Source: Candidatus Omnitrophota bacterium
GTDB taxonomy: Bacteria; Omnitrophota; Gorgyraeia; Gygaellales; Profunditerraquicolaceae
NCBI GenBank assembly: GCA_030650425.1
Contig: JAUSED010000005.1
Coordinates: 78,932 to 142,931 of the forward strand
Direction of reading: 5' to 3'
Length of the DNA: 64,000 bases
In this document: positions 1 through 24,000 of the stretch, piece by piece
How the letters are laid out: each line of letters begins with the position of its first letter
How positions within the stretch are numbered: position 1 is the stretch's first letter
Notes under the pieces: model-generated
The model's database searches: none
Seen by the model: only the letters and a program-made list of their open reading frames with translations
Told to the model about the DNA's origin: nothing
Made by a program: the position numbers and the translations under genes

Positions 1-3000
1 AGGTAAAGGATGATGGCAAAGGGATTAACAAGGAGAAGATTATTAAGCGCGCGGAAGAGTTGGGATTCATCAAAAAAGGCCAAAGGCTTAGCGAGCAGCA
101 AATCCTTAACTTAATATTTCTGCCTGAGGTAAGCGAAGCAAAAGACAGCCGGGAAGGAACGGGAATAGGCTTGGCTACTATTAAGAAGAGCATTGAGGCT
201 GTATGCGGCCAGATAAACGTAAAGAGTAAGACAGGGCAAGGAACCCAATTTAGCTTTAGCCTGCCTTGCGGAGTAGAGCCAGATAAGCTGAAGTCCGGCC
301 TGATAAAATCATTAAAACATAAGCCGTTTGTTATCGAGGTAATCGGAGAAAGAGGGTCTTTTTATAAAGAGGCGGCTCTTTTCTTGACGTGCCTTTTGGG
401 AGCGCGGCCTTTTAACACAGGCTGGCATGCGCGCGCGGCAGTATCTTTATTGTTGAAAGCTATTATGGAAGGCGCGAAGGTAGACAAGAATGATACAAAA
501 GCTGTAGCCGAACTTATGGAAAAATTATTAGAATTAATAGACCGCCTCAGGGAGCCGGTAGTAATCGGCGGCATTGTTACAACCGCTAAGAATGGGAATG
601 CGGTATTGGCTTATCGCGATGAAATTAAATTAGTTACTGACGCCTTAGGCCTCCAGCTTCATAGATTGGTTAATAGCCTGGAAGTGAGCGCGGTAATTGA
701 TGAATTCATAAACAGCGTGGTTAATGGTACTATTGTTTCAGGCCGATACTCAGGCATAATTTTATATACCTCAAAACCGTCTAAACGAAAGGACTCGCTA
801 AAACTCGCGCTCTTGGCTCCTGCGGAAATACGCGCGCAGAGGTTGGGCTGTTCTGTAGAAGATATCAACAAGATAGACAAAAATACAGGTATGGGTGAGG
901 ATTTAAATTATTCCGATGGCATCCTATATATATCAACCGATGATCTTAGCCCGCGTCAGGCCTATCGCAAGGCGCTCGCTATTGTAAGAAAAGAGTTAGT
1001 TAAAGAGTCTTCGCCGCAATCTTCCACCAAACCTCTTTCATCCAGCCCTGCCAGTTCCCCGGTAGAATACGAAAGTAAGCCAGTGGTTTCAGGCGATATT
1101 TCCAGATTGCGCGGTTATTGGTTTATGGAAGCGCCGCGGGAGTATCGAAGGAACGCCCTTCTTTTCGCGGAGAATCACGATGAGCGTCCCGCGCTTGATG
1201 CCTTTAAGAGTATGGAAAAGGCAGAGGCCGCCGCTGTTATTATTCTATCAACAGAGGCGCATATGCTTATCCCGCTTGCCCAAATATACGGGATAAAAAT
1301 GCCTGTTGGCGCGCGCACGGAAATGATGAAATCCCCGGACGCGGGCATTTATCGTTTTAACTATCCACAGCGCCAAGAGGCTGACTTAAAAATAATGTCT
1401 TTCTTTGAACAGGTGCTTCCTATTTTTAGCCAGTCGGTTTTTAGTAAGGGCGATTTATACAGCGCTAAATTAGCTTATCCGGAGGTACATTCTTTAAGAG
1501 GGCTATTTCCGGTGGTGCGCCATTTGCAAGGAGCAGGCGACACAATAGCGGTGATTAATTATTCAGATGGCCGAGAGAAAGTCAGGATAGATTTAGCCAA
1601 AATTTTTGGTTATTATCCCAATCAGGGATTGGCAATTTTAACGCGTCAGCCCAAACTGCGCTATACCAAGAATGTCACTCTTGAATTTAAAGAACCGCGG
1701 ATAGAATTCTCTTTCGGCCCTTACGGCTATGCGATTTTAGGGTTTAGCTCCAGCTCGCCGTTGGAAGAGGAATTCGTATCTCCTACTTCTATGGAGCTTA
1801 ATCCTCACAACTCTTTCTACGGGCAAAAAACGATGATTGATGGCGTGCAGATAGATAAAGTTGTAGCAGCGGGCTTGAATAATTATATACAGGAAAAAGC
1901 ATTAAATACCGCTGACAAAGATAGATTGACTTTTTCTATTGATGGTGAGGCCTTGACGTATGAAATGGTTAAGCTCAAAGAGAGGGTTTTAGCCATAGAC
2001 ACAAGATTAAGCAGTTTGAACATAAAAGAAGCCTTAGCTGATTTATTAATCACAGGCTTAGAGGACGTAGCAGACTTTAATATAGAACAGCTGCCTTTTT
2101 GCTTACATTTTACACTACTTGAGAAATCCCGTTATCTTTTTGAATCTTTACCCGCGCATAATTTCGCAGGTATTAATAGGGGGATACTCGCGTTCACTAA
2201 CCCTCACGCCAGAGATGTTCTTTTGAGGCTGGGATTATGGCATATCTTGCATATTAAGGCAACAACCAAAGGCAGATTGCATGACGGCATTATGAGGCTT
2301 AGGGATGTCGGTGTTGCTAAGAGGTTGATCAAGGAAAGCCGGCTGGGAAGTATCAAAAGATTTATGGCCGCGGTTGAACGAGATGGAGTATTATCGGAGA
2401 ATGCGTTCTTGTTGAATATTCTAAAGGCTTTTTCGACGGAAGAGAAGAGCCCGCAGGATAAAGTGGCTGGTATAAGAGAAAGTATGCGTTGTGATCTCTT
2501 AAATGAACGTCTAAACGCGTTACAAGAAGCAGCTGATAATAATTTAGCAGTTTATCTTGTAGATGATTTATTAGTTTTGCTCCGCGAGAAAGAAGAGCCG
2601 GCCAGGTATAATTTACGCACGCAAGAGGGTAAAGATTGGTATCACGTTAAAATGAATGCTATTTGGCTGTTAGGTAAATTAGAAATATTTCAGGTTGGAA
2701 TAGAAAAAGCTAGGGAGGTCTTGGCCCTTATGCTTGCATTTGGCCTAAGGAGCCCCGCGCCCTGCGTTCATGTCTCAGCTATACTTTCTATTGAATCACT
2801 GGAAAAGAAGGCAAAGGCTTGGCTTAAGCAGGAAGAGGAGAAAGATACATTACTTCCGGGGGCATTACCCGAAGGTGGAGCGGTATCGAGCCCTGTTGAG
2901 GAGGAAGAGATTTTCTTAAGGGAAATTCTGGAAGAGTCTTGTCAAATGGGCTATACGCAGCGGGAGCGCGAGATTTTACAGAGCGCGGCAGAATTTATTT

Positions 3001-6000
3001 CTTCAGAATATCAAGGTAAAAGTTTTAAATCTGGGGAGACGTATTTCCATCATGCCTTGGCCGCGGCCAAGACGCTTTTAGGCTGGAGAGCCGATATAAA
3101 AATCGCCGTGGCGGCGTTTCTGCATAAATTAGACCCTGAATCAAGGAAAAGGCAGGAAGGCCGGCTGAAAATTAAGCATTTAGAAAGAGAAGAGGTTGAT
3201 CAAATTATCGGTATGGTTGAGCGTTTAGAAAACATTGAACAGCGCTGGCCGTATTTGGGCGGGACCATCGTTTACTTGAAAGGCAATAGAAGCGTGCGCC
3301 GTTACCAGAATGCCGTTATGCAATTATGCCGGGATTATGAAACGCTTCTTTTGGTTTACGCGGATAAATTACAAAGCCTGCCCAAGGCCGCGACCTTTAA
3401 GGAAAAAGAGTACCGTTTCCAGGAAATAGTGGATATTTATATGATGCTGCCAGCCCGCTATAACGATTATAGCATGTTTGAAAAACTTAGAAACAAGGCC
3501 TTTGCGATATATGTGCCAGAGGCGGTTTTAGCTATTGAAGGGGATGCCCAAAATAAAGGAATACGCCAAAAGACTTGGGGGCTTTCTTTCCAAGAAATGG
3601 AGCAAAAGCTGAGAGAACTTTCCGGAGAGATCGCTATTTTATTAGAGGCAGGCAACATTCAGGCGGAAATTAAATCGCGCGTAAAGAGCGCATACGGCAT
3701 GTTTGAAAAAATATCCAGCGGAAGAAGGGTAGAATATAATAATTTTGAGGCATTAAAAGATATTTTGGGAACACATATTATATCCGCAAGCGTGGATGTT
3801 ATTTATAATCCCATCATGGTTTGGCTGCGCAAGAAAGGATATAGTTTTAGCGTTGATCAAAAATCAAAATTCAAAAAAGGGTACGAAGCCATTCATATTG
3901 ATGTGGAAATAAACGGTATTGAGCAGGCGAAGGCCCCTCTGCCCTATGAAATCGTTATCTTTAGCCCGGATGATTATAAAAAATATATTTCCGGTAATAG
4001 AAAAGAAAAGTATCTGCCTTTAACTATCCCGCATTACGCTTGGAAATTCGCTGGCTTAGGCGAAAGAGGAGACGAGCAAATTATTGACGCGGATCAATTG
4101 GAATTAAATAGCTTGCCCGCTGAGAATTATCAACAATTGCTTCATTCGTTAAAAAAACTCATTTTTGTTAATTATTTAGAAAAAACACAACGCGGGCTTG
4201 AGGCGCGCTTTATAGAGCTTCCTTACCAAGCCTATCCGGCGGATCTGGCGGCGCATGAGGAGGTGAATAGGTTAGATTCTCAATACAATGGCTTTGTAAC
4301 AATCGCGCTTGAGAAGAGAGGAGAAGAAACCGTTAAAGAAATTTCTCGTCCCCAACCTTTGCAAGAAATCGCTCTTTTAGCAACAGGTATGATTGTCATG
4401 TTGAATCCTCCAGGGGAGGGTTTAGGCAAAGACGTGCTTGGGGTTCTTGAGACTAAAGTGAGCCAACCTCGCACAGTAATGCTTCTGAAGAGGTTGAGAA
4501 ATATGAAAAGTGCAGATTATTGGATTAGGGCGGGAAAGGCGTTAGTGAGCCATAATATAAAAGGCAGAGTTGATAAAGCATATTATGAAAACTTACGTCA
4601 GTTCGCGAGGAGCAAAGGATTTCTGGATATTGCTGAGCTTTTTGAGGCCTTTGGCCGCGGGATCGTTGAAGTTCCATTAGGCAAAAAAGGCGGCTCTTCA
4701 AGCCCCCTGGATTCATCCATTGACCTTGAATTCTTTAAGCATAAATTGCTTCATAGCGAAGGAAGCGTTTCCTTTAAGGGCCTAAATATTTACAGCGAAG
4801 AAGAAATCCGTTATTTTTGGAAGAAGCAAAAGAAATATGGCGGAGTTTTCCAGCAGTTGTCTTTCGCCGCCGATCAGCTAAGCAAGAAAGATAAGATTAA
4901 GGTTCTTTGCGCTGAGGGGGTTTCGCATTTTAAAGACGGCCCTAAATTTTTTACAGCCAGCCGCCTGGCTATTCTTCTGCGCGAGAAAGGCGTTCCTGCG
5001 GAGGCTTTTGACATTTATGTTGTGGATACGGATATGAGCGCGTTGGAACAAGCTGCTTACGGATTTTATGATGCCAGATGGTTCATTGCGCCTAAAGGTG
5101 AAGCGCAAGAGCAGGGTATATTTAAAAAATATTTTGTTGAGTCTAAAAAACCACAGGGGTATCAACTTAAAGAATCTCTACGCTCCCGCATTCATCCGGT
5201 ATATACGCCTTCCCTGATTGAGCTTGAGGAAATTAAAGAAATAGGCCAATTTGATTTGATTACATATTTTTTTAAGGAGTATGTTTTGGAAACAAATCCA
5301 AATGCTCACGGCCAGATCGTAACCAATATTGTAGCCGGACATTTGATCGCGTGCTTAAAGGAAGGCGGTTTTCTCTTAACAACAGCGAATAAATGGTTTG
5401 AAGAATCAAACCTGATGAAACGCCTATCCGTGACTGCGGTTTCCCGTATCCATCGTTCTAATGTGGGCACTTTTAGAACTAAGGTTCTCGCCTATAAGAA
5501 ATTATTCGCAAGCTATAATGATGAATTTTCTAATAAAAAACTCATTCAGCAGTCTAACCAGCTTCGCCATTTAGAAAAAGTTATGGGCCAAAATATCAGC
5601 GTTAAAAGATTCAGGGACGCGTATGAGCTTGCGCGTCAAATCCATCGGGGCAAGAAAAGAGATAACGGAGAACCGTATTTAATGCATCCTATAGCCGTCG
5701 TTGATATTTTTATTGATGTTTTAAAAAGATACCCTCAATATTGGAAGCAATTAGGCTTGGATAGGATTTCTCTGGATGATTCTTATGCCGCTTTGATTGA
5801 CCATGATGTGTTTGAGGAGTATGACTATGATCATGGCCCGTTGAAGAGAAAACAATTAGAGAGCCTGATTAAAATCGAATTAGGGGATGCGGCTTTTGAT
5901 TTTATCATCATATTGACAAATGATAAGGCAAGCGAAGAAGAATATCTTTTGCGCATTATTAGTGATACCCGTTTAATCCTTTCTCTTATGAAGATGGCTG

Positions 6001-9000
6001 ATAAACTGCATAGTTTAAAGACTCCCCGTTATTCCCGCGCTGCTGAGAGGCAGAAAGAGAGCCTTTTACAGGCTATTGATTTTATCCAGAAATCTCGGCT
6101 GCCCAAAGAGGTTCCGGGGATTGTCAAATATTTTATTGATGAAATTTGCCGTTTATATTTACCTGAAATTGTAAAAAGCCGCGAAGAGGGGACGCTTAAA
6201 GGAGGCTTGCCGCAACAATCTTCCCAGCTTGATCCGGAAAAATTTTTTAGCTCACCGGTGGGTCCCGAGGCCGACTGGCGGCGGGCCAATTTCTTACCCG
6301 AGACCTCACTGCTCTTTACTATCTTTTCACCTCAGGAGCAAAAGATGGCTCTTAAAAGATACAGAATCTTAACTCGGAATATGGCAGGGATTATCCCGGA
6401 GCATAACACGCCAGAAGCAGAAGAAACCATCAAGGCAATTTATCTCTACGGAGGGTATCTGTACCATGGTATCCCGACAGACATGGATATTGCGTTTATC
6501 AAATCGGCGAAGATTTCGGTTGAGAAGGACGCAGGGATTTCTATGCTTGCCCAGCGCCTCGCTGACACGGTAAGGTTCCGCGGAAAGGGGTCAGGTTCTG
6601 TTGAAGCGGAGAGGCGGTTGGGTATGACAGTGAATACCCGCCTTTATCTAACGGCAGCGGAATTATGGAATAGCGGCTATCAACTCAGGATGCCGTCTGG
6701 TCGGGAAATCTTTAATTTTGTCAGTCAATTGGTCTGGCCGACAGGGGGGAAGGGAAGTTATCTCGCGCAGGCGATCCTGGCTTTGAACCTATTGGATAAT
6801 ACGGTCTTGACCCGGCTAGGGCTGACTATGGCCGATGTCAGGTTAGTTTACTATGCCAGGGCCTTTTATCTTACTCAGAACCCGCCAATCGATATCCAAC
6901 AGGTTATGGATATCAATAAAAATGTTTGGTCACTGGTTAAAAAGATGAAATGCCAGTTTGCCAGTTCAGTCGTAAATAGAGGGGGTAGAAAGGATGCCTA
7001 TGGTTGTTTAATGCGAACTTTAGTTTCTCAACAACATAAACCTGGCTCCAGTTCACCGGTGGAGGTTTCATCTTCAATCGAAAGCTATGCCGTTGTGACG
7101 GATACTGAAAATAATTCTATAGTTTTTCTTCCCATAGTAAACGGCCCATATATTAGAAACTATCTTGGCACAAAAATAATTAGGGGATTGATTAAAAGTT
7201 TAGACCAATGGATAGGTTTTAAGATAGGCGGCAGGGAAGTACCCACTAATGAAGAAGAGGTTCTGCGTTGCCAGAAGATTTTAACACGATTCGTAATGCG
7301 TCGGTCAATGGGGGAAATTCCCATCGTGTCATTGCGAGCGAACGAAGTGAGCGAAGCAATCTCGACGAGATTGCTTCGTCGCTGCGCTCCTCGCAATGAC
7401 AAATTCCCTGGATCGCCCCCGTTCACTGACGCATTACCACGATTCATCTCCGAGGAAGGGGGAGAGGCAGTTGATTTGTCGACTAAGGGATTTGAAGTAC
7501 ATCTAGTCTTATCTTCGCAAGAAACTTCGAAAAAACCTAAACATCTATCCATAGAGGCATTTTTGGCAGTTAACCAGGAAGGCTATGTTGTGCTTGAGAT
7601 AGCCCCTTGGAATAAAGCAGGCCGTTATTTAGGCTTGGCCCATCAATTAAGGGTTTTCTTTTTTCAAAACATTTTATTGTGGAAATATGACCTTGGGCTT
7701 AAGGCTGTTTATAATATGATATTTACTGTGAGTTATAAGACTATTAACGGGTTAAAAAGAAGCGTATTTTTACCAAAAGACCTGCCAGACTTTATAGCTT
7801 ACGATCTTCCTCCTGTAAATATAGCGGTGATAGAGTCCTACCTTCTATCGTATCTTGTCAAGGAAACAGAGAGGGTGGCAGAGTTAGTGGTGAGAGACGA
7901 TTTAACGAAGAATAAAAAACGTTCTGGCTCGCCTATCGCGGCCTCATCGGTTGAGTCATCCGTTAACGGAACAGAGGAAACGGCAAGCGCGGAACTAAGA
8001 TCTATACTTCATAGCCTCAAGAATAAGTTTCTTTCGCTTGTATATTTTTCTGGCCTTTTGTTGCGTAAGGCTGGCCCCTTAAGAATCGAAGAGGATATAC
8101 CATTATTGAGACTGTTGCGAAATGTCATTTTTCGTCATCCTGAGCGAAGCGAAGGATCTCGTTATCGACGAGATTCTTCGGCCTTCGGCCTCAGAATGAC
8201 GCAAAGTCGGGCATTTCGCAACAGTCCCTTATTGCAAGCAAACAGCCCAATTTCATCCCCAATGGAGTTTCATATCGAATGGGCAGGGGCGCTTGACCAG
8301 AATCCGAAAGGGATTATCAGCGCGGCGGGCGAAAGATTTAAAATCTATTTTAATCTCGTATTTAGCGAATATTTCACCGCAGAAGAAGTACTGGCATTTT
8401 TTCCCGACCGGCTCAAAATAGAGATGAAGCCAAATTTTTACTACAAAGGAATAATCCTAGTGGATAAAATTCAGGTAGTAAATATTTATTCACCTGCCGG
8501 GGAATGGGCAAGGACTAACGACAGAGAGCAGCCAATCTATCCGGAGACCAAAAGCAAGGCCTTTAGGTTAGAGGTGCCATTTTATACCCATGATTCTTTA
8601 ATATTTGATAACGATATACACTGGGAAAAAAGGGAACTTTTGCTTTTTTCTCTGCTGATTAAATTTAAGCATCAGGGAGAAGAGAAGGTTATTGAACTTG
8701 AAGGGTATGGAAAAAGCGGGGCCGGCATAGTTGGCCTCCATTTACCTGCTGTAGGTTATTTTAGCGAAAGACTTAAGCAAAGGCTAGAGAATCTATACAG
8801 CGATTATTTAGGAGGCATTGAAAAAGATAACGCGATAACTCTCTTAGTGTATTATACGGAGGTATTAAAGATAGAATATGCTAAAGAATTACTGCTAAGG
8901 ATTGCCAAGGATAGCAACCATTTAATCAGAAAGGATTTGGCTGTAAGCTTAAGGCAGCTGTTAGCGCATGATATTCACGCAGAGATTTTAAATGAATTAA

Positions 9001-12000
9001 TCAATGACGCCGACAGAGAAGTCAGGGAAGAGGCGCTAGTTACCTATTGTGTATATGCTTTGCGCGGTAAATTTTCTAGTGATTTACAAGATCTAAATAA
9101 CTTACCAATGCGTATCTTTTTTTATGCGAAGAGCCTTTTTGTAAAAGAGGGAGAGAGAAAAGAATTAGTAACGATATTAAAACAACCAACAGATACCGTA
9201 AGCTTTCTTGCTGGTTTTTCCGGAGAAGACTTGCGCGGAGGAATTTACAGTAAGGAGCAAGCAGAAGGCTATATTCGTTTATTTAGAGAAGCGGTTGTTT
9301 CTGAAGTAAAGGGATTTTTAAGCACAATAGAAGCAAGAGTAAGAAGGGTAAGCCTTGATGGAAGCAAGGTTGAAGAGGATAAGAAAACAATTATCAGCCT
9401 GATATCGGAAATGAGACGGGAATTAGAAAGGCGGCAGGCTGGCAGCCCGATTTTCGTAGTTCGAGGCCTATCTTTGCGGCAGTATAACCCCGGTTTCAGA
9501 TTGCTGTATTTATCTGGGCATATTTCCAGTTCGCCGATAACCTCCAGAAGCAACAACATAGCAGGAGCGCCTTTTTCTAAGTCATTTTTACAATGGCTAA
9601 GTGACTCAGGTATAGGATTAAGGAGTCCTCCGTCCAAGCTGCTTGCGGCTTTTGTCTTCCTTGCATATCTAGCCGCATCTATTTTCTCGCCAATAGTAAG
9701 CAGAGCAGATTCAGTTCAAACGCCCTCAGGTGGAAAGGCGCCTCAGGAAATTCCGCAGGAAAAACCAAAGCAAGAAGGACAGGCGTCCTTGAAAGCTCCG
9801 GCAAAGGCCGCTAATGATTTAGCGCAAGTAAAATTAAGCGAGGCAATAACTGCTCTCAAGAATAAAAAGAGGCCAGAGGCCGAAGGATTCCTTAATTCTG
9901 CGAAAGAATATTTGTTCGAGGTTAAAGCCGGTAAAATTGTGGCTAAAATTGAAGATCATAAAACTTTGGTAGAATTTGCGGAGCTCTCAGAGCGCCTTCG
10001 CAGGTTCGATGATGCTATTTTGGCTTATAACGCGGCCGCGGGAGTTGTTGAAAAAAAGGATCCGGATTTAGCAGAATATTACAGGTCAATAGCTTCGTCT
10101 CTCGAACCGTTTAAAAAAGGAGAAACGTCCCGTCAGCCGCCTGCGCCTCTATCTCCTGAAGCTTCTAAGAAAGCGGTAACGTTAAGCCCGGAGGAGCAGG
10201 AAAAGCTAAAAAAGACCACCAGGGCCGCATTAGATAAAATCGAAAGATCTTTAGGGACACCTAAAGGTATCCCGATAACGGATGAGCAAAGAAAGGCGGC
10301 GAAGAAGAGTCTTGATGAGGCAAAGGAAAAGTTAGATAAATCACGGATAACTGACTTTGATCTTTATGCTGAAATCGGCAGAATATATAATTTATTAGAC
10401 TTCTATAAAGAGGCAGGAGAAGCAAACGCGAAAGCGCGGGAATCCGTCGCATCAGACGCAGAGAAAGGATTTATTAAAGACCAGATTCAGAAGAACGAGA
10501 TGGACGAGATGAACGCGCCAATAAAGCGCCCCGGCAGCTCGCCGTTAGGCAGTTCCAGCTCAAAAACCTCAAGCCCTATGGAAGATTATGGAAGATTTTT
10601 GGCTTTGGCGGAAGAAATTAGCAAAGTGATTAAAGCTGCACAGGCCGCCATCTTTGATAAGAATAGAGAACAAGGAGTTTTTGAGCTTTATGCGCAAATA
10701 GAGCACGCCGCGAACTTATTTGAAAGTTTTAAACGAATCTTTCATTCTTTTAGAATCACACCTGAGCTTAAAGAGCATTATACGGAGATAATAGTTGCTT
10801 TAGCAATGAATTTCCCGTCGCGAATTGAGCCAGAGTCAAATCTTATCCGAGGAATGGATACAGGCCTTACCGCAGCTGCCGAAAAAGAATTGAGGGCTAT
10901 TTTATCATATAAAGAGGCTAAGCAGGTACTATGGCAAAAACTGCAGCCGTATATTATAGGTTTAGATGAAATTCCTGAGCCTAAACTCAGCTTAGGCCTG
11001 CCCATGGTGATTAAATCGTTTCATAACCTTGATGAAATAAGATATCTCCAGGAAATGGCTGGTAATTTCGAGCTTCAATTCTGTGTGGTTTCGCCTAAAA
11101 GGACGCCTTATCCTTTACTTATTTTTTCAAAAGAGCTTGGGGGTTGGGCTGAAATAAGGTTTGTGCCTTTTGCCTCTGCGGTGGCCCATACCCAAGCTTA
11201 CTTGATTCCTTTGGAAGCAAGTCAAGAAGACGAAAGAAAGGCAGGATTAGTCAACAGAGTTTATCGAATTCCTTTCCTTGTTTTAGGTTTTGGTTCCGGA
11301 AAAGATACTCATTTGGAAATCTCCTGGTTTACAAAAAATGCGCCTTGGTTTCATTACGAGCGGGAAAATCAGGAAGAAATAGTCCGGTTTTTACGCAAGG
11401 TTAATTTCCTGGAGACATCTTCTCCCCTTATTGATAATACCGGTGAGGAATGGACAGATAGAGAACTGGAAATCTGGCGATTGTGGGCAAAAGGCGTAGA
11501 TCGGGAAGCTATAGGCAAGGCATTAAATGAAGGTGAACGTTTTATAAAAAGGGTCATTTCAAAGATTATAACAAAATTTAATATTTCAAAAAGAGGTCAA
11601 ATAGCGCACTTTATCTCTATTAAGGAGGCAAAAAAGTACGGCATAGATTTAGGTATTAGCTTAAAGGAGGCCTTAGATCAGGATTATCTTGCGGCAATTA
11701 AGCTTTATCTGAAAAATGAGCCTCCAATGGATATTGACAAAAAATTCAACAAAAAAGATTCGTGGTTTTTAAAGGCGGTCTTTCCTGTTATGCTTATTTT
11801 AACCAATATGGATATGGAACCTTTAGATGATAAATTCTCTGATAGTTTCCGCCAACGGATTACGGATGTTTTAATTGAGCAAGGAATTTTGGAAAAAGGA
11901 TTTACGATTAAGCCTAAGGAAGTTTTGAGTGAACGGGAGAAAAAGATTTTGTGGTTGTTTATAGCCGGTTACAATCCAAAAGCCATTGCTTTGACGCTTT

Positions 12001-15000
12001 CTCTACCCGAAGGCATCCTTCTTTCAGACATCCTCTTTGCTATGAAGCAAAAACTAAGGGTGCCTATAGATCAGCCTTATTATGCTTTGCCTAATCCCGG
12101 AGTTTTAGCCTTAGTTAAGAAAGCCATAGAGTTGAATGAATTACCGCAGTATATAAATTTAGATGATTTAACTTCCAGAGTTAAGCGAAATTCCTTGGCT
12201 CCAAGTGAGTTAAAATTGCTGCAGAAAATTTTGGAAGGTAAAAAAATGAAACAAATACCGCCAAGCGAGTTAGGTTTAAATTCTAGAAATGGAACAGAAG
12301 AAGCCCGCTACTATTTAAAGAATAAAATGGGGCTAAAAGGCTTAAGGCTCAGTAGTTTGGAGATGCGCTGGGAAGCTATGCGTCAGGGGTATTTCTTGAG
12401 GACAGAGTGGTTGGTTTTAACCAAAGAAGGCAGGATCCTTCATCAACCTTGGCCATTAGAGGACACCTTAGTCCTGGTTGTAAAAGCGAGAACCAGATCC
12501 GGGAAACCCGCAGGTTTTTATGTTTTTTATCCAGATGCCTCTCTAAGTCAAAGAAAAAATTTATTCATTAATATCAAACCCTATTCTCGCCAATTTTCCG
12601 AAGAATTTAAAGAGTCTCTTAAGGGAGCCGCGCAATATGTTAAGTCTCAAAGGGGTTCCCTGAAGAAAAGCAAGAATATGAAAACCAAGGCCTATAATCA
12701 GTCTCATGTCTACTTAGCCGGCTATTTTTATCCCAAATACCTGAAAGAAGGGTTTTTTGCTATAGAAGCCTTTAGCCTGACGTTTAAAGAAATTAATTAT
12801 TTTGGCCCGGTAAAAGCCTCTTACCTGAGATTTATTTTAGAGAATTTAGGCTATGACTGTGCCTTCTTAAATGTTATTTTTGAAACCAAAGAATATTATC
12901 AAAAGATAAATTTGGATATTCCGGAATTTTTTAGAGATGGCGAAGCAGCGGGTTTTAAAGGGCTAAAGGCTTTCGAATATTGTTTAGAAGCGATAAAGGA
13001 ACGCGATCGGAAAAGAGAGGTTAACCCGTATATAATTGAAGGGCTTCTTTCACACAGCGGTTTTCGAGTTGGGTATTACGGGACATTATTTACAATTTAT
13101 AAATTTTGGAATAAGCACGGAGTAGATGTTATTGAAGAGTATCAATATGATGCTTATGATCCTTCTGAATTCAAACGCCTCCTTCGCCTCCTGCCGTTTG
13201 AGCTCCCTTCATTAAAACAGCGACAGGATAGAGCTTATTATCTTGAACGTATATTGAAAGAGGCTGGCAGCATTGAGGATGTCATCTATTTGCGGGTTGC
13301 CAATGGAGTAAACGGCGATGAAGAATTTGGAGTTATAGATATACCTCATGAAGCCTCTCAGGAAAAAGCAGTATTTTTAAACGAGATAGCTGAAAAATTA
13401 GGCTCTAAAGCTCACATATTATTGCAAGCAAGGGATTTATTTGGTAGCGAAGAACTTTCTCCCGAAGAAGAAAGAGAGCGTGATTCCTTGATTGAACAGA
13501 TTCAACAATTAGCGGGTATTGATAAGAAAGAGACGAGTGAAAATGATACAAATGGCGCAATTACAAGAAAGACAGATGAGCAAATTGGGATGAAAACATC
13601 AGTATGGACTGAAATTTCCAGCTCGCCGGTGGAAGAGGAAGATGCAAGGCAGCGCGCGGTTCAAGTTACAAAGAGCCTTATTAATGACTTAAACAAAGAT
13701 ATCCTAGAAAAAAATAAAGTCACGAGAGAATCTGTTAGAGTGCAATTTGCCGATAAAACAAAAGACGAGAAAATCGAGCTCAATTTCGGTACAAAATTGT
13801 TAAATTTTGTTTCATTAATGGAGATAGTGAATATTTCCCCAGCTATCAAGGCAAAGGCTTTGATCAATATAGCTAGTAAAGACAGGAAATTCATGTTGAT
13901 TTTTTATGCTCATCTGAGGGTTTATTTCTATGATAGTTATGAAGAGAAATGGTCTTCGGTTGAATTAAACGCGAACAGGCAAAAATTTGGCCCCGAAGCG
14001 CTGTTGAAGGATGAGGCGGTAAAAAGTTTTATAAATAATGTCCTTAGAGAGCGTTTTGCTCAATTAAAGAACTTCAGAAAAATTATTAAAACATATCCTC
14101 TTCAGGATTATAGCTTAAACGGAGGCATAAAGATCAGCCTTGATAATACGATCTTTGACCTTCCCAATAGCAAAGAGACAGGGCTTGGCAGAATTGTGAG
14201 AGAGAAAATAGGGATAGTCAGGGATAAAGGGGCGCGGGGGACGATATTTACCGCCTTGGTTGAAAAGGATTCGTTTGAAAAATCCGTTCCGCGCTATCTT
14301 TTATTTTTGTCCCTTGTCGACACAGTTGAGCTTTATAACCAAGGCGGGCTTATTACTGTATACCCCAAAGACGGAAAGTATTACGGCTATAGCGATGACA
14401 TCTACATCAATACCTTTCTTTTTTATATTGTTTCTAAACAAGAGCCGGCATGGAAGCGTGTAGTTCTGAAAAGAGGGTCGAACAAAATAGTTATCGGAAG
14501 CGATGCTGATGGCGGTTTCATAACACCGCCTAATTCCAATATGCGCTTAGATTCATTGGAATTCCATAAATACGGCCCAACGTATGTGGATGTTAAGAAG
14601 CTGATGGATAGTAAAGGCAATTTTATCGCAGGATTTGCCGGCGTCGGTAAAGGCCAATATTTGGTTAACGGCATAGGATGGCCTTTGAAAGATAAGAAAT
14701 CTCCTGTAATTATTTTTGAGGGCAAATTTTACCTTACTACTGTGGTTAGATGGTTATTGCAAAAGTATGGAGAAATTCCGGTTGCAGAGCCCTTGGAAAA
14801 AGCCATTAAAGCGATACCGTTAAGGATGCTCCAGACTAAAAATACCTTCTATAGATTAGAAAAGACGGCAGCTAAACGTACGGTTTATGATATGGAAACA
14901 GATCGATGGTTGAAGAAAGATGTCTGGAAGGTTTTTCCATATGATCAAGAAGACGAAGGCTTGGGGACATATACACTTAATGAAATTGTTAGTATTCTCG

Positions 15001-18000
15001 TAGAGAATATAAGCAAGTCTAATCCCAAGCATAATCATCTCTTAGATTTACGTCCAGCTATTCTAAGATACCTTCCTTGTGTCAAGGATCAAAAACGGCT
15101 CGAAGCAATCAAAGCTAATCTTAAGTTAGGCATTGGTGAAGTAAAGCAAGAATTAACTGAAGATGAGCTCATGCGAAAATGGATAGGAACCGCTATCCGT
15201 CGTTTAACCGAAGAAAGAGAAATAACCCCGGTTTCTTCTTTTAAATTACATGCCTTATTGGGGATTGAATATCGAGTGGCTACAAAAGCTGCCCGGCGTG
15301 AAATAGAATACTTAGAAGAGATCGGTTATCTCATTAGAAAGAAGGAAGGGAGCAATGAGTATGAGCTAAATAACACCCATTTAATTTTAATTGTAAAATC
15401 GTCGGTCAATTCATCGCCGTTAGCCGAAGGAGTGTCCCTTTGGGGAGCGTCCCCAATTAGAGTGATGGCCGCGGGCATTGCCCTTATCACCTATCTCCAC
15501 CTTGTATTATTTACTCCTGTTTTTGCCGCGGAGCAAGCTTTAAAAGCTCAGCCTCTAACGATTGCTAACCCGGTAGTCTCGCTCCAAAAAGCTATAACGG
15601 AGAAAACAATACAGCAAACAGGACTCGATCAATTAAAAGTAAAGAAGGCCGCTGATGAGATAAATAAGTATATTGAGGAGCATATTAGGAAGCATAAAAA
15701 AATAGATGAGAAAGAAATTAGCTGGATATTAGGAAAGATGGGAGTTAGTTTCGCGATTATTGATAAGATTATTGCTAATAAGGAGATAAAAGAGATTAAA
15801 ATTCTTCCCAAGTCTCCGGGGGAAGAGATAATAACCATAAAAGTGCCCCCTGTTTTGCTTCCCCAACAAACGTATATCGAGCCTGCCAAGCAAACGCCTC
15901 GTGAAGCAAAGGTAAAAAAACCAACGCCGAAACCAGCAGTTTCTATTAAGGGGGAAGCCGCCATAGCTACCATTCCGCCCGGCACAAAACTTTCGTTGGA
16001 TGACAAGAAAATCACGATTAACCACCTCGTAACTTTGACCAGAGGGCCCGCCGGTATAATAATTACCATAGAAATTCCTCAGTGGGATAAAAATAAGCCT
16101 AGCCGCAGTAAGCTACTGAGTACTTTCAGCGGCGCGATGTTTACCTTATTGCCATTTTTAGGTATCGAGACGAGCCAGACGAATATCGATACTTTTGTGA
16201 AGGTGGTAGCAAGCTGGAACGGAAAAGATAATCCTAATAAACTAAGCCCAAGAGAAAAAATTTCCTATCCTATCGGAGAAGAAAGGGCGGCTGATTTACT
16301 TAAGGCCTTAAAGCCTGCCGCGCAAAGAGAAAAAATAATTGAACCTCCGGTTAAACAGGAAGAACCTAAAGAACCTTCGCAGGAGCAGCCTGCGTTAGAA
16401 AAAGAAGAGCAGATACTGCCGGCTGATGAGGTTAAGCAGCTTTTGGATGGGTTGACAAACGACAAGAACAGGGAAAACAAAGAGAAGATTAAAGAGCTGG
16501 TTACAAAAGTGGAGCGGCTTAGCAAAGAAAGCAGGTTTGCGGATGTTCCCCCCGAACTCGTGCAGAACCTTTGGATTGTGGTTGGTAATTATTATCAAAA
16601 CATAGGAGACGCAGAGAACGCTATTCGTGCTTATAAGGAAGCTGTTGAAGTTGGTAAGAAATTAGCCAAGCCATCTACCGGTCCCTATTCTCTTTTGGCA
16701 CAGCTCTATAAATCCCAAGGCCAGAGCTACCTTAAAGAGGAGCTGGAAGCCCTAATTTCATATATTGAACTGGCGAAGAGGCAAGGCATAGCAACGCCTA
16801 CCGAGGAAAAAAGGCGTAAGGAAATAGAAGATCTGCTGCACGGACAAAAAGTTCAGGCTGACGCAGAGCAAATTATGCAATTGCTGACAGGGGCTTCTCA
16901 GGATGTTGAAAGAAGAGATAAGCCGGCTGCTTTGGATAAAGTTAATCAGGCCATAGGAATTATAAAAACAAACAATATGGTTTTCCCCGGCGCATGGCAG
17001 CTTGCCGGGGAGATTTATTATAAGTTAGGCGATCTTAATCAAGCCCGGGATGCTTTCGCAATCTCCGGAGAAACGCCCGAGGCAAAATATGGTTTGTTTT
17101 TGATCGGGTTCAAGCAAGGCAAATTAGACGAGGCCCTGCCTACTTTGGGAGCCGCGATTGAAATGGCTTCAGGAGATAATAAAGACGCCTATCAAAAAGC
17201 ATTGTATGCTGCCGCGGAAGAATTAGAGAAAAGCGGTAAGCCTGAGGCGAAAAAATATTTCGAACAGATTATTACTTTGGATTCCGGAAGAGCGGGAGAT
17301 GCGCAGGTTAGATTAGGGGATATTTATTATCAACAAGGAGATTTTAAGCAGGCCGCTAAGTTTTATGCGGATGCCTTAAAGAGCGATTCTAGCGATGCCC
17401 GAAACACAGCCAAGAGCCAGCTTGCGCGGATTAGCTATAGGAATTTTATGAGGAGTACTCTTCCTATGCTTTTTGTTGGTTTGGTTTTATTCATTATCGC
17501 AGGAATCTCTGCGGGTAGAAAATTCAAAAATAAATTCAAACAAACATTAGAAAAAAGAGGGATACCTGTTAGCCAAGAGGACTTGGAAGATGAAAAATTC
17601 CAGTTAGAGCAAATAATAGCCAAGCCTGAAGCCCAATGGGTCCGTAAAGCCCTGTTTCCTTGGGGAATGATCACCAGCATAAAAAATTCTTTGAGGAGAG
17701 AGAGGATTAGGGAATTAAATAAATATAGATTTGCGCGTGACGCCGGTTGCGGGGAAGAGGAGGTAAAGAGATTCGAGAGATTGATGGTTGTTTACCGGGT
17801 TACAGGAGAAAAAGGATGGGCAAAGATAATCCCCTATCGCGTTATAGGCTTTATAGGAGGCCTGTCTTATGCCGGAAAAGTGATCTTGCCTCCCGGAAAT
17901 CAGCCAGCCGCGAAAATAGTTCAACTTTATCTTGAGATTGAAGGAGTAGGGATAATATGCAGGCCCGCGACCGACTTTTATGTCGATGAGGCTAAGGCAA

Positions 18001-21000
18001 TTGAAGAACTTAAAAGAAGGCAAAACGCATCCGCGATTAAGCCTAGTTTCAGCTCGCCGGTGATACCGCCAGATCGAGGGACACAATGCTTAATTCCGGA
18101 GGAATCCTCTTCTCCAGCTATATTGCCGCCTCTAGCTCCGCAAGAGCCTCTTGTTTATAGCTTTCAAGGCAGAATAGCGTCAAAGACAGAAGCAAATAGG
18201 GCTACGATAATTCGTGATATGACGATCAATGGTGTTTTCGGATTTAAGCTGATTATAGAGGAATATCAACGCGCCAAAAAATATGATCTGCATATCAATG
18301 ATTCCGACAGTTACCCTATTGGCTGGGTAGAATGGGAGTTTAGAGATGAAGTGCCTTATATTATTTTCATCAAGAGAAGGTTTAGCTATAAAGGTAAAGG
18401 ATTATCAGAATTGTTGATGAGGATAACGTTAAAACATATAGAAAAAATTTATGGCCAAAGAGTAGAAGATACAATAGTTGATTCATTTGTTATTTTTTCT
18501 GAATCTAGCATTGCGCGTATAACCGGATTATTACAGCGCCTATGGTTTAGGGCAGCCAAGGAAGATAAAGAAGCGATAAAGTTCCTGAAGTATCTAAAAG
18601 GCCTCCCAGACCCTTTCAGAGTATCTTCAAGTTCTCCTCTGCCCGGAATTCCCGTAACTTCTTCTCCCACAATTTATTCCGAAGATAATCTAAATAATCT
18701 AAGGACACAATCCTTAATTTCAAGTTTTGGAATTAAGTATTGTGTCCCTGGAATTCCTGGAATTCGGGACAATTTAGAAGACAGAATAATCATATATGAT
18801 GTTAACGGAAGAACAAAGATTATGAAAAAAGATATTAGGGCTAGCATAGTTGACATAGATCAGTTGCACCTTACTTCGTCTCAGAATAGATTGAGCGGAG
18901 GCAGATTTGTTGGTTGCACAGCTTGCCTTTTCTGGGATAACAATGCAGGTATCCATGGGTTTCTACATTTATTTCCTGTTCTTACGGCTGCCGAAGATTC
19001 GATCAAAGGCATTATTCCCGCAATAATCAATAATTTTAAGTTTTGGGGAGGGGAAATAAATGATATTGGTTCAGCGCTTATTCTCGCGCAATGTTCACAA
19101 AAAAATATTGCCCAAGTTTTGTTAGAGCAATTAGGAAGAAATACGAAAGTGGTTTTCGAAAATTTAACTGCCGATCCATTCGCAATAAGAAAACAGGAAT
19201 ATATTAATCGTATTAGCATCGAAAGAAATTTATTCTCTATAGACTTGCCTAAAATTCCTAAGCCTTTAATCTTTTCTATGGTTGACAATAAAAATCAATT
19301 CGTTAGTTCGCCTGTTGCTTATATGCCCATATCATCCCGAGGCGCGAGAAGGCACGCGAGATTTTGGCTGTTAATTAGTGTCGCGGAAATGGCGGGATTG
19401 ATGGTTGTGGGTATTTTAAGCCTGAGGGCCATCGGCACAATCGCCTTAATTACTTTGAGCGTATCAGCTATGCTCTATCTTCAGGCAGGTATTTTAAAGA
19501 AATGGGAAGAAATCATTCTGTCTAATCCTATAAGGGCCGGGCCCTTGAAAAAAGTTGCTTATTTCTACCGCTGGTTAGATCGCGTTGAAATTAATCCTGT
19601 CATTCTTGACCAGCAAAAAGGGCTGAAGTTATACTTTTTGTTCCTTCCTCATGAAGTATTCCATAAACTGAATTTAAAGGTCATTAAAACCTTCCGATCA
19701 ATCTTTCCGAGTTACGGGAAGAAGCTATCCGACTCTAAAACTATAGACGCCTTAGATGAATTTGGCGCTTATTTATTAGGCGCCTTTATTCCCGTGATGA
19801 TTTTAACCTTGCCGTTTACCACCTGTATTATCCATGAATCGTATATAAGAAGGGCAGCGCGCACAAATCGTATGCTTGAGGCGCTAAGGGCATTTGACAG
19901 AAAATACGAACAATTGGGCATAGAAGAACTTAATGAGGAAGAGTTTGGAGAATTAGAGCGGGGTATCATTGAAGAGGTTTTAGATGCAAATGTTGATATG
20001 TATTTATGGAATGAGAATGAACCGGTAAATAGCCAGAAAGGCATTGATCTAGACGAAGAGGCGTGGCTGCGCGGTAGTATAGAGCAATATTTTAGCGTCA
20101 ATGATCCTGCCGCAAGGCAGACGATCTTAAATCTTCTTTTAGCAGAAGAGTCAGAATATGAAAGGAAAGGCGGGTTAGGCTGGCGTTGGTTATTTAAATA
20201 TGATTCTTTAGGGAAGCCGGTAGGATTGCTGGGCCTGCATATATTCGATAGAAATAAGCTTCCTCAAGGGGTTATTGCCGGCAGCCTGATTCAGGAAGAG
20301 TCACTATATGGAAAGGGTTATGTAAACGAGATATTGTTCTGGATAACGGATAAGGGAGACAACGGCTTAAGTATATTTAAGATTACAAATTGGCTTAAAA
20401 ATAAGGAAAAGAGGCATCCCAACTACATTATGGATGGGGATACTAATTATTTACTCTTCGCGTTGTCTGAAATTATGCACCGCATAGATGACAAACGGCG
20501 TATTCTTAGGGAGAAGAGCGAATTAAGAGAAGCGGGGATAAAAGATTTGTTAACCGGCGCTTATAACAGAAGGTATTTAGATGAAAGTTTACCCAAGTGG
20601 ATAAGCGAAGCAGAAAAATTTAAGTATTTTTTCAGCCTGTTAATGCTGGACATAGATTTTTTTAAGGGCGTTAATGATACCTACGGCCATCCCGCGGGGG
20701 ATGCCATCTTAAAAGGCATAAGCGAGGAAATTCAACGCACTATGCGAACGGATATATTCAGGCCTTCTGATGTTTCGTTCCGTTACGGAGGGGAGGAGTT
20801 TTGTGTTATTGCAACATCTAATCTTGAAGGGGCAAAGAAGCTGGCTGAAAATATAAGAAAAAATGTAGAAGGGCTTTCTTTTGTGCTGCCGGGAGTTAAA
20901 AAGCCTGTCAAAGTTACGGTAAGCATTGGGGTAACTGAATATAGGCCGGGTGATGATACCCTGGGCGCTTTGATAAAAAGGGCAGACCAGGCCCTATATA

Positions 21001-24000
21001 AAGCAAAAGAAAATGGCAGAAACAGGGTAGAGGCCTTCGCGGCCTCTTTAGTTAGTTCGCCTATTGAAGGCTCGCGCGCGGATTTTTATCGCCCTAAGGC
21101 GGACAATCATTTGCCTTCTATCCCCAAGGAGAGGGAAGAGGCAATTAGGGGAGAGTTAAAGGGAAATCAGCCGATAACTAATATTCAAAGGCAATTTGTT
21201 ATTGATGTATTGAATGAGGCTCAAGGTTTAGCGAGAGAAGACGTAGAAATTGTACGTTCATTGCGGGGAATAGCTTCTATAGAAATACGCGCAGGGCCTA
21301 TGCCTAACCTTTACGGAGCTATTTATGATAATATCTTATATTTAGACACACTATTTTTCCAATCCCGCCAACGAATAGATTTTCTTCTTACCTTAATTTA
21401 TCTAGCCGGAGCCAGGCTTGGCAGAAAACGCAGGCATAATGAAGCATTTGCCAAGAAATACGCGGCAAATATTCCCAATAATAACCAAACTATAGTTAGC
21501 AGGCCGGAGTTATTCTTAAAACCCGAAGAAGTAATCGTATATTTTAAGCGCGAAGGAGAGAACATTGATAAAATCCAAAAGAACTCTATCTGGCTGCAGT
21601 TACCGGATGAATTTAAGGATTTTACAGTATTGACCCCGGCTCAAGCCCTAACTGAAGGGCTTATTATATTAACGAATAATCCGCACCTAAAGGAGCGCCT
21701 GCAAAATAATATAATATCGCAGCCAGAACGCTATAGAGTGTCAATAGAAGGAAAAGTCAGCGAGGAGGATTTACGTTCTATGTTATCAGGCCGGTATGTA
21801 AAAGCGGCAAGAGGAGAGAATAGCGGAGCTAATAATACTGTGCATATGTGGAAGGTAAAGCCGGATAGCCTAGAGGTAAAAGAACGAAATAAGGATAACA
21901 CAATTTTGGAGATTTATTTTTCCAGAAGAGGGGAACGGGAGATTTTGGTATTATTCAAGAATTTCGGTTATTCAGTGAAAAACATAACCCGGACACAAAT
22001 AGGCCTAATTAGCCCGCAGGATTTGAAACCCGGCAGTTATCGCAGGCTAAAATGGAATGAAATACCGGCCATAGCCGGGCTTTATTTCAAAGATACTTTG
22101 TATGAGCGAAACTTAGCGGTAAAAGAGCAAAAATATGCCCTTGAAGAAACGCAGGATTATGAGGTTATCGACTTCTTATTGAATGATAAAAATGTGATAA
22201 GTGATGTTTTCCAGAATATTTTTATGAGGTTTGATTTGGCCGCCGATAACGGAGAGAGAGAAGATCTTTATTACATCAGGGAGGGGGGGTTTAAAAGAGT
22301 TTACAAAATAGTCTTAAGGTCGAAAAATAACATAGAAAGATTCGCGTTTTTCGTTAAGGTTGTTAAGGCTGATGTTGAAATGACCGATTCTGGTTATCGT
22401 TATGACGCGGAGTATGCTAAAAGGCTTGTTGAGACCGCGCGCTTAGCGCGGCCATTAGCGCGGCAGAAGGAGCTTGATTCCTATCCTCCCGTAGGCGGTT
22501 ATTATTGCGTAAAGGGTAAAAACGGAGAAACAAGGATTATTTTTACAGAGGGCATTATCCCCGCGGCAAACGCGCATTTAACCCCGGATAAGAGAAACCA
22601 GATACTGATCAGGACGTATCTTTTATACTATTATATTTTTGGGAAACAAATATTTTTTGCGGATTCTAAACCGGAGAATGTTATTATCCATCATAAATCC
22701 CAGATAGGATATAGAGGCACGCTTATCGATATGGATAATATTATCTTTAGCGAAATATCCCCAGCCCATCTTGTCCATAACCTGCTTTTATACGGTTTCA
22801 AAGCAAGCGACATTATAGAAGCCTTGATTAAATTCTTGGGCAATCAAGAAGCCCACGATTTCTTAAGGTCAATTATGTTTTTAGCCGCGCAGCCGCACAG
22901 CCAGATTATGATTCCTATAGTAGAAGCGTTTAAAGGTTATAGAGATAGAGGGATATTCCAAAAGGAGGTCAGCGGAAGTTTTAAGATTAAGCAGCCTATA
23001 AAAATAGCTATCAATGATAAAGAAGTGTTAGTACCGGAACGGACAACCCTTCTTGAGATTTTAAATGATTGCTACGTGGATATTAATACGATGGATGTTG
23101 AATTAAATGGAAATCTGCTATCGCTGGGCCCCGGGGCCTTATTGACAAGCGAAAAAAGGTCAAAATATAAAAATACTATTCTAATGAGTAACGACAAAAT
23201 AAAATTCTACAGGGAATCAAGAGTTCACAAGGCTATGCCTAATGAGGTTCCTAAATTTTACACCCCTGCTTTAAAAATAAAATTAAAGCTGCTTAAGGAA
23301 ATGGGGTTTGATGGGCAATTAAAGGCCATGTCAAAAGAATTAATTAAGTTTAATTCCGCGGTTATAGATAAGGCCGTTGTAACGCCGGAGGTTAAGTCTT
23401 TTAGGCTCGTCAGCGGTTCATTATTAAATAACTTTATGAGGTATCTCAAAAAACACAGAAACCATCCTTTTGAAGGCTTTAAGCCGGATATAATGCTGAA
23501 GAGGTTTGACGATATAGATTTTGAAAGGCCGCAAGAAAGAGACAAAATGAGGCCGGTGCTTCAAAAATTACTGGCAGGCTTAAAGGATTCAAATAATACA
23601 TTTGATAGGATTTTTAAAATGTCAGCCGAGGAAGCGCGCGGCAGCAGCCCGGCCATCCAGGGCTCAAAACAACAGGTTAAGATTAAGAAGACAAAAGAAT
23701 TTGAGGAAATTTTGAAAGGAATTGTTTCAAGCCCGATTGCTAAAGAAGAGTATTTAGCTGTAGTGGTTGAGAGGGGATTTTTTGTGCCGGAAGGAATAGA
23801 AATGATAGAAAAAAGCCTTGATAAAGGCATATTGCACCCCGGAACGAAGGTGAGTCCGCAAGATTTCGCTGAATTTATGGAAAATTTTCATCTTAATTCA
23901 GGATTAACCGCGGGCTTGAATAAAATCTCTCGGCTAGCCTATTGGCCAATAAGCGAGAGTAAAAAGATATTTTATTTACCCAAAGAGTTATGGATGCGGA

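Follow-up and report, generated by a model that had tools for sequence, protein, structure and literature searches.

The 64,000-nucleotide stretch of contig JAUSED010000005.1 (positions 78,932 to 142,931) of a Candidatus Omnitrophota bacterium, hereafter the window, contains a single giant reading frame in which two related segments, A and B, are each directly followed by an array of helix-turn-helix (HTH) units. The explanation favoured here, with moderate confidence, is that A and B are old paralogous copies of a cassette that is bounded by junction motifs and carries a JAMM-like protease or pseudo-protease. This cassette would combine an N-terminal helical bundle with a C-terminal domain of MPN/JAMM (JAB) fold exhibiting a JAMM-like constellation of metal-binding and catalytic residues, and the TSSP motifs at its ends are instances of a delimiter separating about 55 protein-sized units of the giant gene. 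The delimiters might serve as processing or recognition sites. In that case the target of the cassette might be these sites or the adjacent unit: it could, for instance, release or control the HTH array behind each copy, with A and B possibly functioning as a pair. The positions of all features are collected in Table 1.

Fold and predicted metal site of the cassette

An exhaustive HMMER scan of 1.84 billion representatives retrieved 23 clusters with the module (best E=1.4e-29), unlike word-indexed homologue searches (alignments A1 and A3), which gave no match. All named homologues originate from metagenome-assembled genomes of Candidatus Omnitrophota. The whole module is conserved across the family, including the helical part with its 'Y..L....L.FP' motif, and it is found in ordinary-sized as well as in long multi-module proteins. 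An ordinary-sized example is P0004 (MBU1007160.1), which is 594 amino-acids long, possesses a signal-peptide-like N-terminus and has housekeeping neighbours.

The AlphaFold2 model of the module, built on an alignment of 24 sequences, reached a predicted local distance difference test score (pLDDT) of 91 and a predicted template-modelling (TM) score of 0.89; an earlier run on two sequences had been poor (pLDDT 45). It comprises a helical bundle and an α/β domain with the element order β-α-β-β-β-α-β-β-β-α, and exhibits the mixed sheet, the helices and the succession β1-α1-β2-β3-(β4)-β5-α2-β6-β7-β8 that characterize the MPN fold. MPN/JAMM proteins of about nine families dominate the Foldseek list obtained against the PDB (probability up to 0.94, target-normalised TM score up to 0.43), the top matches being BRCC36 with its partner, Rpn11, Rpn8, CSN5, EMC8/9, AMSH/Sst2, BubCD and an archaeal Rpn11-like protein. 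In the Foldseek viral library, JAB and deubiquitinase proteins recur. The AlphaFold and Foldseek comparison proposed by the initial annotation, which could assign no family, thus points to an MPN/JAMM-like fold, as in zinc proteases of the deubiquitinase type; by sequence, a family is still lacking.

The family consensus reads E...HTH-x8-S-xx-D: E170, H209 and H211 (module numbering) are at least 90% conserved, D223 is invariant, Ser220 is at least 70% conserved, and the full E-HxH-S-D set is kept in 17 of the 22 outside homologues. In the model, E170 opens the strand 170-176 that comes after helix 1, H209 closes the strand 206-210, and S220 and D223 cap the helix 221-234. JAMM enzymes such as Rpn11, AMSH and AfJAMM carry the motif E...HxH-x7-S-xx-D at those positions. 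The comparison can be extended to the JAMM/MPN+ proteins as a whole (Rpn11, CSN5, BRCC36 and AMSH; prokaryotic JAB proteins such as Mec+ and archaeal JAMM1/Rpn11-like; Cap3 of CBASS; the RadC-like YicR), with which the cassette shares the fold class found by Foldseek, the element order, a domain size of about 140 amino-acids, and Glu, HxH, Ser and Asp on equivalent elements. It differs from them by the absence of any detected sequence-profile relationship, by a spacing of x8 instead of x7, by the fused N-terminal helical bundle and by being embedded in Omnitrophota multi-module proteins, with no ubiquitin-like partner or Gly-Gly site evident. Given the modelled site, the family is most likely a zinc-dependent (iso)peptidase.

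The two copies of the window depart from this consensus in different ways. Copy A reads HTQ, the second predicted zinc-ligand His being replaced by Q3731, while copy B reads HTH and keeps the Glu and the Asp, its Ser being replaced by G10590. The "conserved H-x-H" of the initial annotation is therefore not common to the two copies (H-T-Q in A, H-T-H in B), although the wider family retains it almost without exception; the metal site that had been deduced from it is plausible in view of the E, HxH, S and D conserved in the family, but degenerate in copy A. Judging from these residues, copy A probably lacks catalytic activity, as MPN-minus domains do, and copy B is possibly active. By analogy, A and B may parallel the MPN+/MPN- pairs Rpn11-Rpn8, CSN5-CSN6 and BRCC36-Abraxas/KIAA0157. 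As in those pairs, one partner has an intact metal site and the other lacks the second His, B and A respectively. The same arrangement occurs independently in the homologue P0020, which possesses two tandem copies of the cassette core (amino-acids ~830-977 and 1104-1252), one with an intact HSH and one with a degenerate HSY. Unlike those pairs, A and B lie ~6,800 residues apart in one polypeptide, and copy B also lacks the Ser.

Several observations weigh against the favoured explanation. Since each copy of the window departs from the family motif, it may be that neither is active, and the spacer in the family's HxH-x8-S-xx-D exceeds the canonical x7 by one residue. The Foldseek E-values against the PDB are weak (0.04-0.4), and neither sequence nor profile searches retrieved a relevant match from the PDB. 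None of the 24 members could be assigned to a significant family with Pfam, NCBIfam or PADLOC (the closest was Prok-JAB, with E=0.3 in one member), and none of them is recognized by the sequence models of JAB (PF01398), Prok-JAB (PF14464) or RadC. Alignment by hhalign with Escherichia coli YicR, human Rpn11 and a profile of Rpn11 orthologues gave probabilities below 1%, with templates whose effective number of sequences was at most 1.4; the Rpn11 template sequence had been validated against the PDB (E=1.6e-129), and a further protein search yielded close Rpn11 orthologues only. Known JAMM enzymes use Gly-Gly, and no P1 residue of this kind is evidently common to the junction motifs of the various lineages. 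Finally, Pfam detected no HTH domain in 13 homologue-bearing proteins.

Some of these points would fit a cassette that is a non-catalytic MPN-like scaffold, which would help parts of the giant protein to assemble or dimerise in the manner of Rpn8, CSN6, Abraxas and EMC8/9, with conserved polar residues that are structural or metal-binding only. In each window copy one canonical residue has been lost, the second His in A and the Ser in B; several of the best structural matches (KIAA0157, Rpn8, EMC8/9) are inactive MPN proteins; and the N-terminal helical bundle is the type of element that MPN proteins use for assembly, as in the proteasome lid, the CSN and BRISC. A scaffold is nevertheless unlikely: the retention of the full E-HxH-S-D set by 17 of 22 outside homologues, with an invariant D223, is typical of an active site, and copy B retains the Glu and all three predicted metal ligands.

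Somewhat more doubtful is the possibility that the α/β domain is not MPN/JAMM, being instead another metal-dependent hydrolase, or a ligand-binding domain of a wider deaminase-like or convergent fold, with a non-peptide substrate. No profile method ties the domain to JAB, the Foldseek E-values stay above 0.03 with target TM scores of 0.43 at most, and the motif spacing is off by one residue. Against this, the matches in two independent structure libraries are dominated by MPN proteins of many families, and the domain agrees with JAMM in its element order and in where all five of its motif residues lie. The module is an orphan family, MPN/JAMM-like by fold and motif rather than by sequence. The cassette family is new and unmatched in Pfam, NCBIfam and the sequences of the PDB, and its named members come from Omnitrophota only.

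Duplication of the cassette and the HTH arrays behind it

The initial annotation had described a shared module of ~230 amino-acids. The peptides that it quoted are all present in frame +3 and the shared module is real, with a length of about 285-315 amino-acids and a junction on both sides. BLASTP of residues 3521-3815 against 10341-10665 aligns the two copies with 110 identities over 324 positions (34%, 149 bits, E=2e-47). Their Smith-Waterman score is 395, compared to 36 ± 5.6 (maximum 81) for 1000 shuffles of B, that is z=64, and copy A does not score above 49 with any of 374 other 320-residue windows of the same reading frame. From the preceding junction on (KTSSPM in A, SASSPI in B), ~65 residues before the onset initially annotated, the two are similar, and each copy occupies precisely one segment between junctions (283 and 314 amino-acids); compared to A, the helical part of copy B is enlarged by an insertion of 29 residues. 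In the core, identity reaches 44%; the copies are mutual closest relatives and sisters in a neighbour-joining tree with the 22 outside homologues. At the DNA level, similarity is just 64% over 253 nucleotides, which indicates that the duplication is old. A search for a third copy with the family hidden Markov model (HMM), run with --max and no filters across the 21,332 codons, found none, so the window holds exactly two. By these alignments, A and B are old intragenic duplicates of one junction-bounded cassette.

Internal paralogy as such is ordinary for Omnitrophota giant genes: in 65% of such giants, a Pfam family is repeated two or more times, and these repeats are old duplications (Nielsen & Lui, bioRxiv 10.64898/2026.06.07.730766). 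Tiled self-BLAST of the whole reading frame disclosed only seven internal similarities, the A/B pair being the strongest. Other pairs are two PrmA-like methyltransferase units (amino-acids 16651-16748 and 19798-19890), tandem LOG (Lysine_decarbox) units (17690-17912 and 17899-18118), and an unannotated pair of ~110 residues ending at junctions (11091-11196 and 12134-12241).

Each copy is followed by HTH units of a different type, as had been noticed from the sequence. The Pfam match to GerE after A reaches 39.7 bits (gathering threshold 23.5), and a third GerE-like unit can be discerned by eye at amino-acids 4067-4541, where Pfam detects none. The XRE-type array after B is matched by HTH_31 (97.9 bits, cut-off 27) and by HTH_3 (91.1 bits, cut-off 23), and contains an internal repeat of a triplet block, residues 10666-10790 being 45% identical to 10825-10951 (E=9e-28). 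The only two strong HTH arrays among the ~55 segments both directly follow modules, an outcome of about 1/1485 if two HTH segments were placed randomly. Chance adjacency of module and HTH array is thus unlikely, and a functional coupling of the two in the window gene is plausible.

The initial annotation went further and proposed that module and HTH array were duplicated as a block, one array being later replaced by the other type. The adjacency of both strong arrays to modules speaks in favour of this. The segments that precede A and B, as well as those that follow them, exhibit no detectable similarity (best E=0.3), GerE and XRE are different HTH families, and the module is not followed by an HTH domain in any of the 13 scanned homologue-bearing proteins. 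Homology between the two HTH-bearing segments was considered separately and rejected, as no similarity is detectable (best E=0.3). The detectable duplicated unit, in the alignments, is the module alone. Since this unit coincides with the junction-to-junction cassette, independent juxtaposition of the HTH arrays is at least as likely; duplication of a two-part unit is not demonstrable, and is improbable. That the A/B similarity reflects chance or composition within a long biased reading frame can be dismissed: no supporting point was found, the shuffles (z=64) and the other windows of the frame (best 49 against 395) speak against it, and so do independent homologues in 23 clusters.

Table 1. 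Positions of the cassette copies, junctions, HTH arrays and related loci (window coordinates unless a locus is named)
Feature	Position	Strand	Details
Uninterrupted reading frame	3..63998	+	21,332 codons, open at both window ends; part of a giant multi-module gene
Module copy A with both flanking junction motifs	10563..11432	+	amino-acids 3521-3810; family HMM 286 bits over 3521-3807
Copy A, N-terminal helical bundle	10575..10991	+	module residues 5-143; has the conserved 'Y..L....L.FP'
Copy A, α/β MPN/JAMM-like core	11004..11399	+	module residues 148-279
Copy A, motif residues	11070..11231	+	E3690 (11070-72), H3729 (11187-89), Q3731 (11193-95), S3740 (11220-22), D3743 (11229-31)
Module copy B with both junctions	31023..31982	+	amino-acids 10341-10660; family HMM 264 bits over 10340-10655
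Copy B, motif residues	31620..31781	+	E10540 (31620-22), H10579 (31737-39), H10581 (31743-45), G10590 (31770-72), D10593 (31779-81)
Double junction upstream of A	10533..10580	+	GSSPLGSSSSKTSSPM
Junction downstream of A	11412..11429	+	ETSSPL
Junction upstream of B	31020..31037	+	SASSPI
Junction downstream of B	31962..31979	+	RTSSPI
GerE/LuxR-type HTH units after A	11454..12200	+	first unit amino-acids 3818-3870; Pfam GerE E=3.8e-10, 2 stretches in 3806-4066
Tandem XRE-type HTH array after B	32007..32759	+	HTH_31 E=4e-28, 4 stretches; HTH_3 E=4.4e-26
P0018 (MBI3314259.1)	L004 10001-24400		4799 amino-acids
P0007, Omnitrophota protein	L005 10001-14260		1419 amino-acids, signal-peptide-like N-terminus

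Junction motifs as delimiters

The initial annotation had both copies ending in a T-S-S-P junction, and both do end in TSSP[LI]. This motif is not specific to the module: it is an instance of a delimiter, [SA]SP[VLI], that recurs throughout the gene. SSP occurs 50 times in the reading frame (3.7 expected), with V, L, I or M as the next residue in nearly all cases, and [SA]SP[VLIMAT] occurs 73 times, compared to 2.95 ± 1.7 in 200 shuffles. The 73 motifs merge to 55 junctions, and the ~55 segments have a median length of ~300 amino-acids. All junctions lie outside the Pfam domains. Several segments are of the length of stand-alone enzymes, such as a GNAT of 176 and a PrmA-like unit of 276 amino-acids, and the GGDEF domain stops 10 residues before a junction. 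The Ser codons of the junctions alternate between TCN and AGY and the following codon is often no possible start, which places the selection at the protein level. Accordingly, a DNA-level signal or an internal start was rejected; TTA, GTT, GCN and ACN are all found as the codon after the junction.

Examples of the delimiter are found at nucleotides 2886, 4698, 13620, 21054, 40806 and 61293, often with an acidic residue next. An extended form, 'SSP..(x)..VGATVVTRGAASP[LV]', is observed twice, at amino-acids ~18270-18296 (nucleotides ~54810-54890) and ~20431-20448 (~61293-61346); the two belong to a pair of segments that are 41% identical (18260-18323 and 20410-20472).

Homologue-bearing proteins display recurrent motifs of their own: RSLG in P0002 (5 occurrences, 0.04 expected), RSETR and RSEAR in P0018 (9 and 7; 0.007 and 0.010 expected), LRPL in P0007 (4; 0.04 expected), ASLG in P0020 (5; 0.06 expected) and GLEE in P0009 (3; 0.04 expected); by eye, junctions that resemble GLEE or GAEE are recognizable in P0003, P0011 and P0019. 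The module is bracketed on both sides by the motif of its host protein, namely RSLG in P0002, RSE[TA]R or a variant in P0018, ASLG in P0020, and GLEE/GAEE in both P0009 and P0011; in the case of P0007, the module is separated from the upstream LRPLAAGE by an additional small domain. P0007 harbors LRPLAAGE four times and terminates exactly on the motif (...LRPLAAGE-stop). In locus L004, a scan with RSE[TAV]R gave 17 matches, all inside the multi-module reading frame of P0018 and none in the flanks. In both L004 and L005, the junction motif is restricted to the multi-module frame, with none in ~20 kb of flanking housekeeping genes. Since the module extends from junction to junction here and is bracketed by the proper motifs of its host in the relatives, the cassette behaves as an autonomous unit that was inserted and, here, duplicated.

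Many of the homologue-bearing proteins, among them P0001, P0003, P0004, P0007, P0009, P0011 and P0019, start with a signal-peptide-like hydrophobic stretch followed by a 'LRxP'-type motif. In several of these, the first junction motif comes next, and several have a small 'W[KR]xGDxV' stretch, which by eye resembles SH3, ahead of the module. Stand-alone genes for an M48 and an MA-type peptidase are located 3-4 kb downstream of P0018.

The delimiters may mark processing or recognition sites, and may be cutting sites. The gene resembles processed polyproteins such as MARTX toxins, viral polyproteins and polyubiquitin precursors in having protein-sized units in one reading frame separated by a short recurring motif, embedded protease-like modules, and a relative (P0007) that ends exactly on a junction motif. 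MARTX multi-effector toxins possess an internal autoprocessing protease, and polyubiquitin precursors are trimmed by deubiquitinases. The system described here differs in that its motif varies by lineage and that it is far larger, with ~55 units in a partial reading frame. A stronger proposal is that the lineage motifs ([SA]SP[VLI], RSE[TA]R, LRPLAAGE, RSLGE and GLEE) would be genuine processing sites, the cassette a dedicated junction protease travelling with these genes, and A and B an MPN-/MPN+ pair. The cassette tends to sit near the N-terminus in smaller relatives with a signal-peptide-like start. In this strong form, the proposal is put forward very tentatively and is rather unlikely to hold in full.

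The giant gene and what the cassette may mean for it

The window frame (frame +3) has no stop codon, compared to 802-2021 in each of the other five frames of the 64 kb. Along it, Pfam identifies about 12 unrelated kinds of families, mostly cytoplasmic-type domains: HATPase_c, HD_4, a weak RelA_SpoT, GerE, TPR blocks, GGDEF, HTH_31 (the XRE array), GNAT, Radical_SAM, Peptidase_M48, PrmA (twice) and LOG (twice). By this architecture, the frame is part of a giant, multi-module gene of the Omnitrophota type, in which a single reading frame of more than 10,000 amino-acids tiles many unrelated enzyme and regulatory domains. The shared repertoire includes HATPase_c, HD, GNAT, methyltransferase, radical SAM, GGDEF, LOG, TPR and peptidase domains, as well as scattered hydrophobic helices, and corresponds to that of the 'Archaeovorin'-type giant proteins (West-Roberts et al. 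2023, bioRxiv 10.1101/2023.11.21.568195). The same authors list many transmembrane helices for such giants, along with domains of the SecA_DEAD-like and C39/S8 peptidase types, and state that their cleavage points are unknown. SecA_DEAD and C39, which belong to that set, found no Pfam match within the window, and the gene continues past both of its ends. In a 2026 survey, class 1, 'multi-enzyme metabolic clusters', and the regulatory co-occurrence module 1 fit the window frame (Nielsen & Lui, bioRxiv 10.64898/2026.06.07.730766). Close relatives of the window were sought in genome and metagenome contigs and none was found.

In a crude Kyte-Doolittle scan, about sixteen 19-mers proved strongly hydrophobic; these candidate transmembrane helices are dispersed between the blocks of cytoplasmic-type enzyme domains and include amino-acids 3214-3232, 5152-5170, 5820-5838, 6456-6498, 6592-6610, 12986-13004, 13723-13839, 16343-16361, 16522-16540 and 18790-18925. 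The Peptidase M48-like segment (amino-acids 16421-16551, nucleotides ~49263-49655) begins 11 residues past a junction and includes a hydrophobic helix; it represents another candidate protease embedded in the frame. To note, GC skew is positive in all 2-kb bins of the window.

No mention of a recurring junction motif or of an MPN-like module in Omnitrophota giants was found in the literature searched, including both bioRxiv papers. New with respect to that literature are an orphan, Omnitrophota-confined family with an MPN/JAMM fold and a JAMM-like motif, a short delimiter that partitions a gene of more than 64 kb, and different, equally recurrent delimiters in related proteins. The delimiter motif provides a principled basis for splitting giant proteins before structure prediction. 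Candidate sites together with a candidate embedded protease make the question of cutting testable by existing proteomics and by simple peptide assays. If the delimiters were indeed processing sites, the giant genes of Omnitrophota would encode true bacterial polyproteins with a readable cleavage code.

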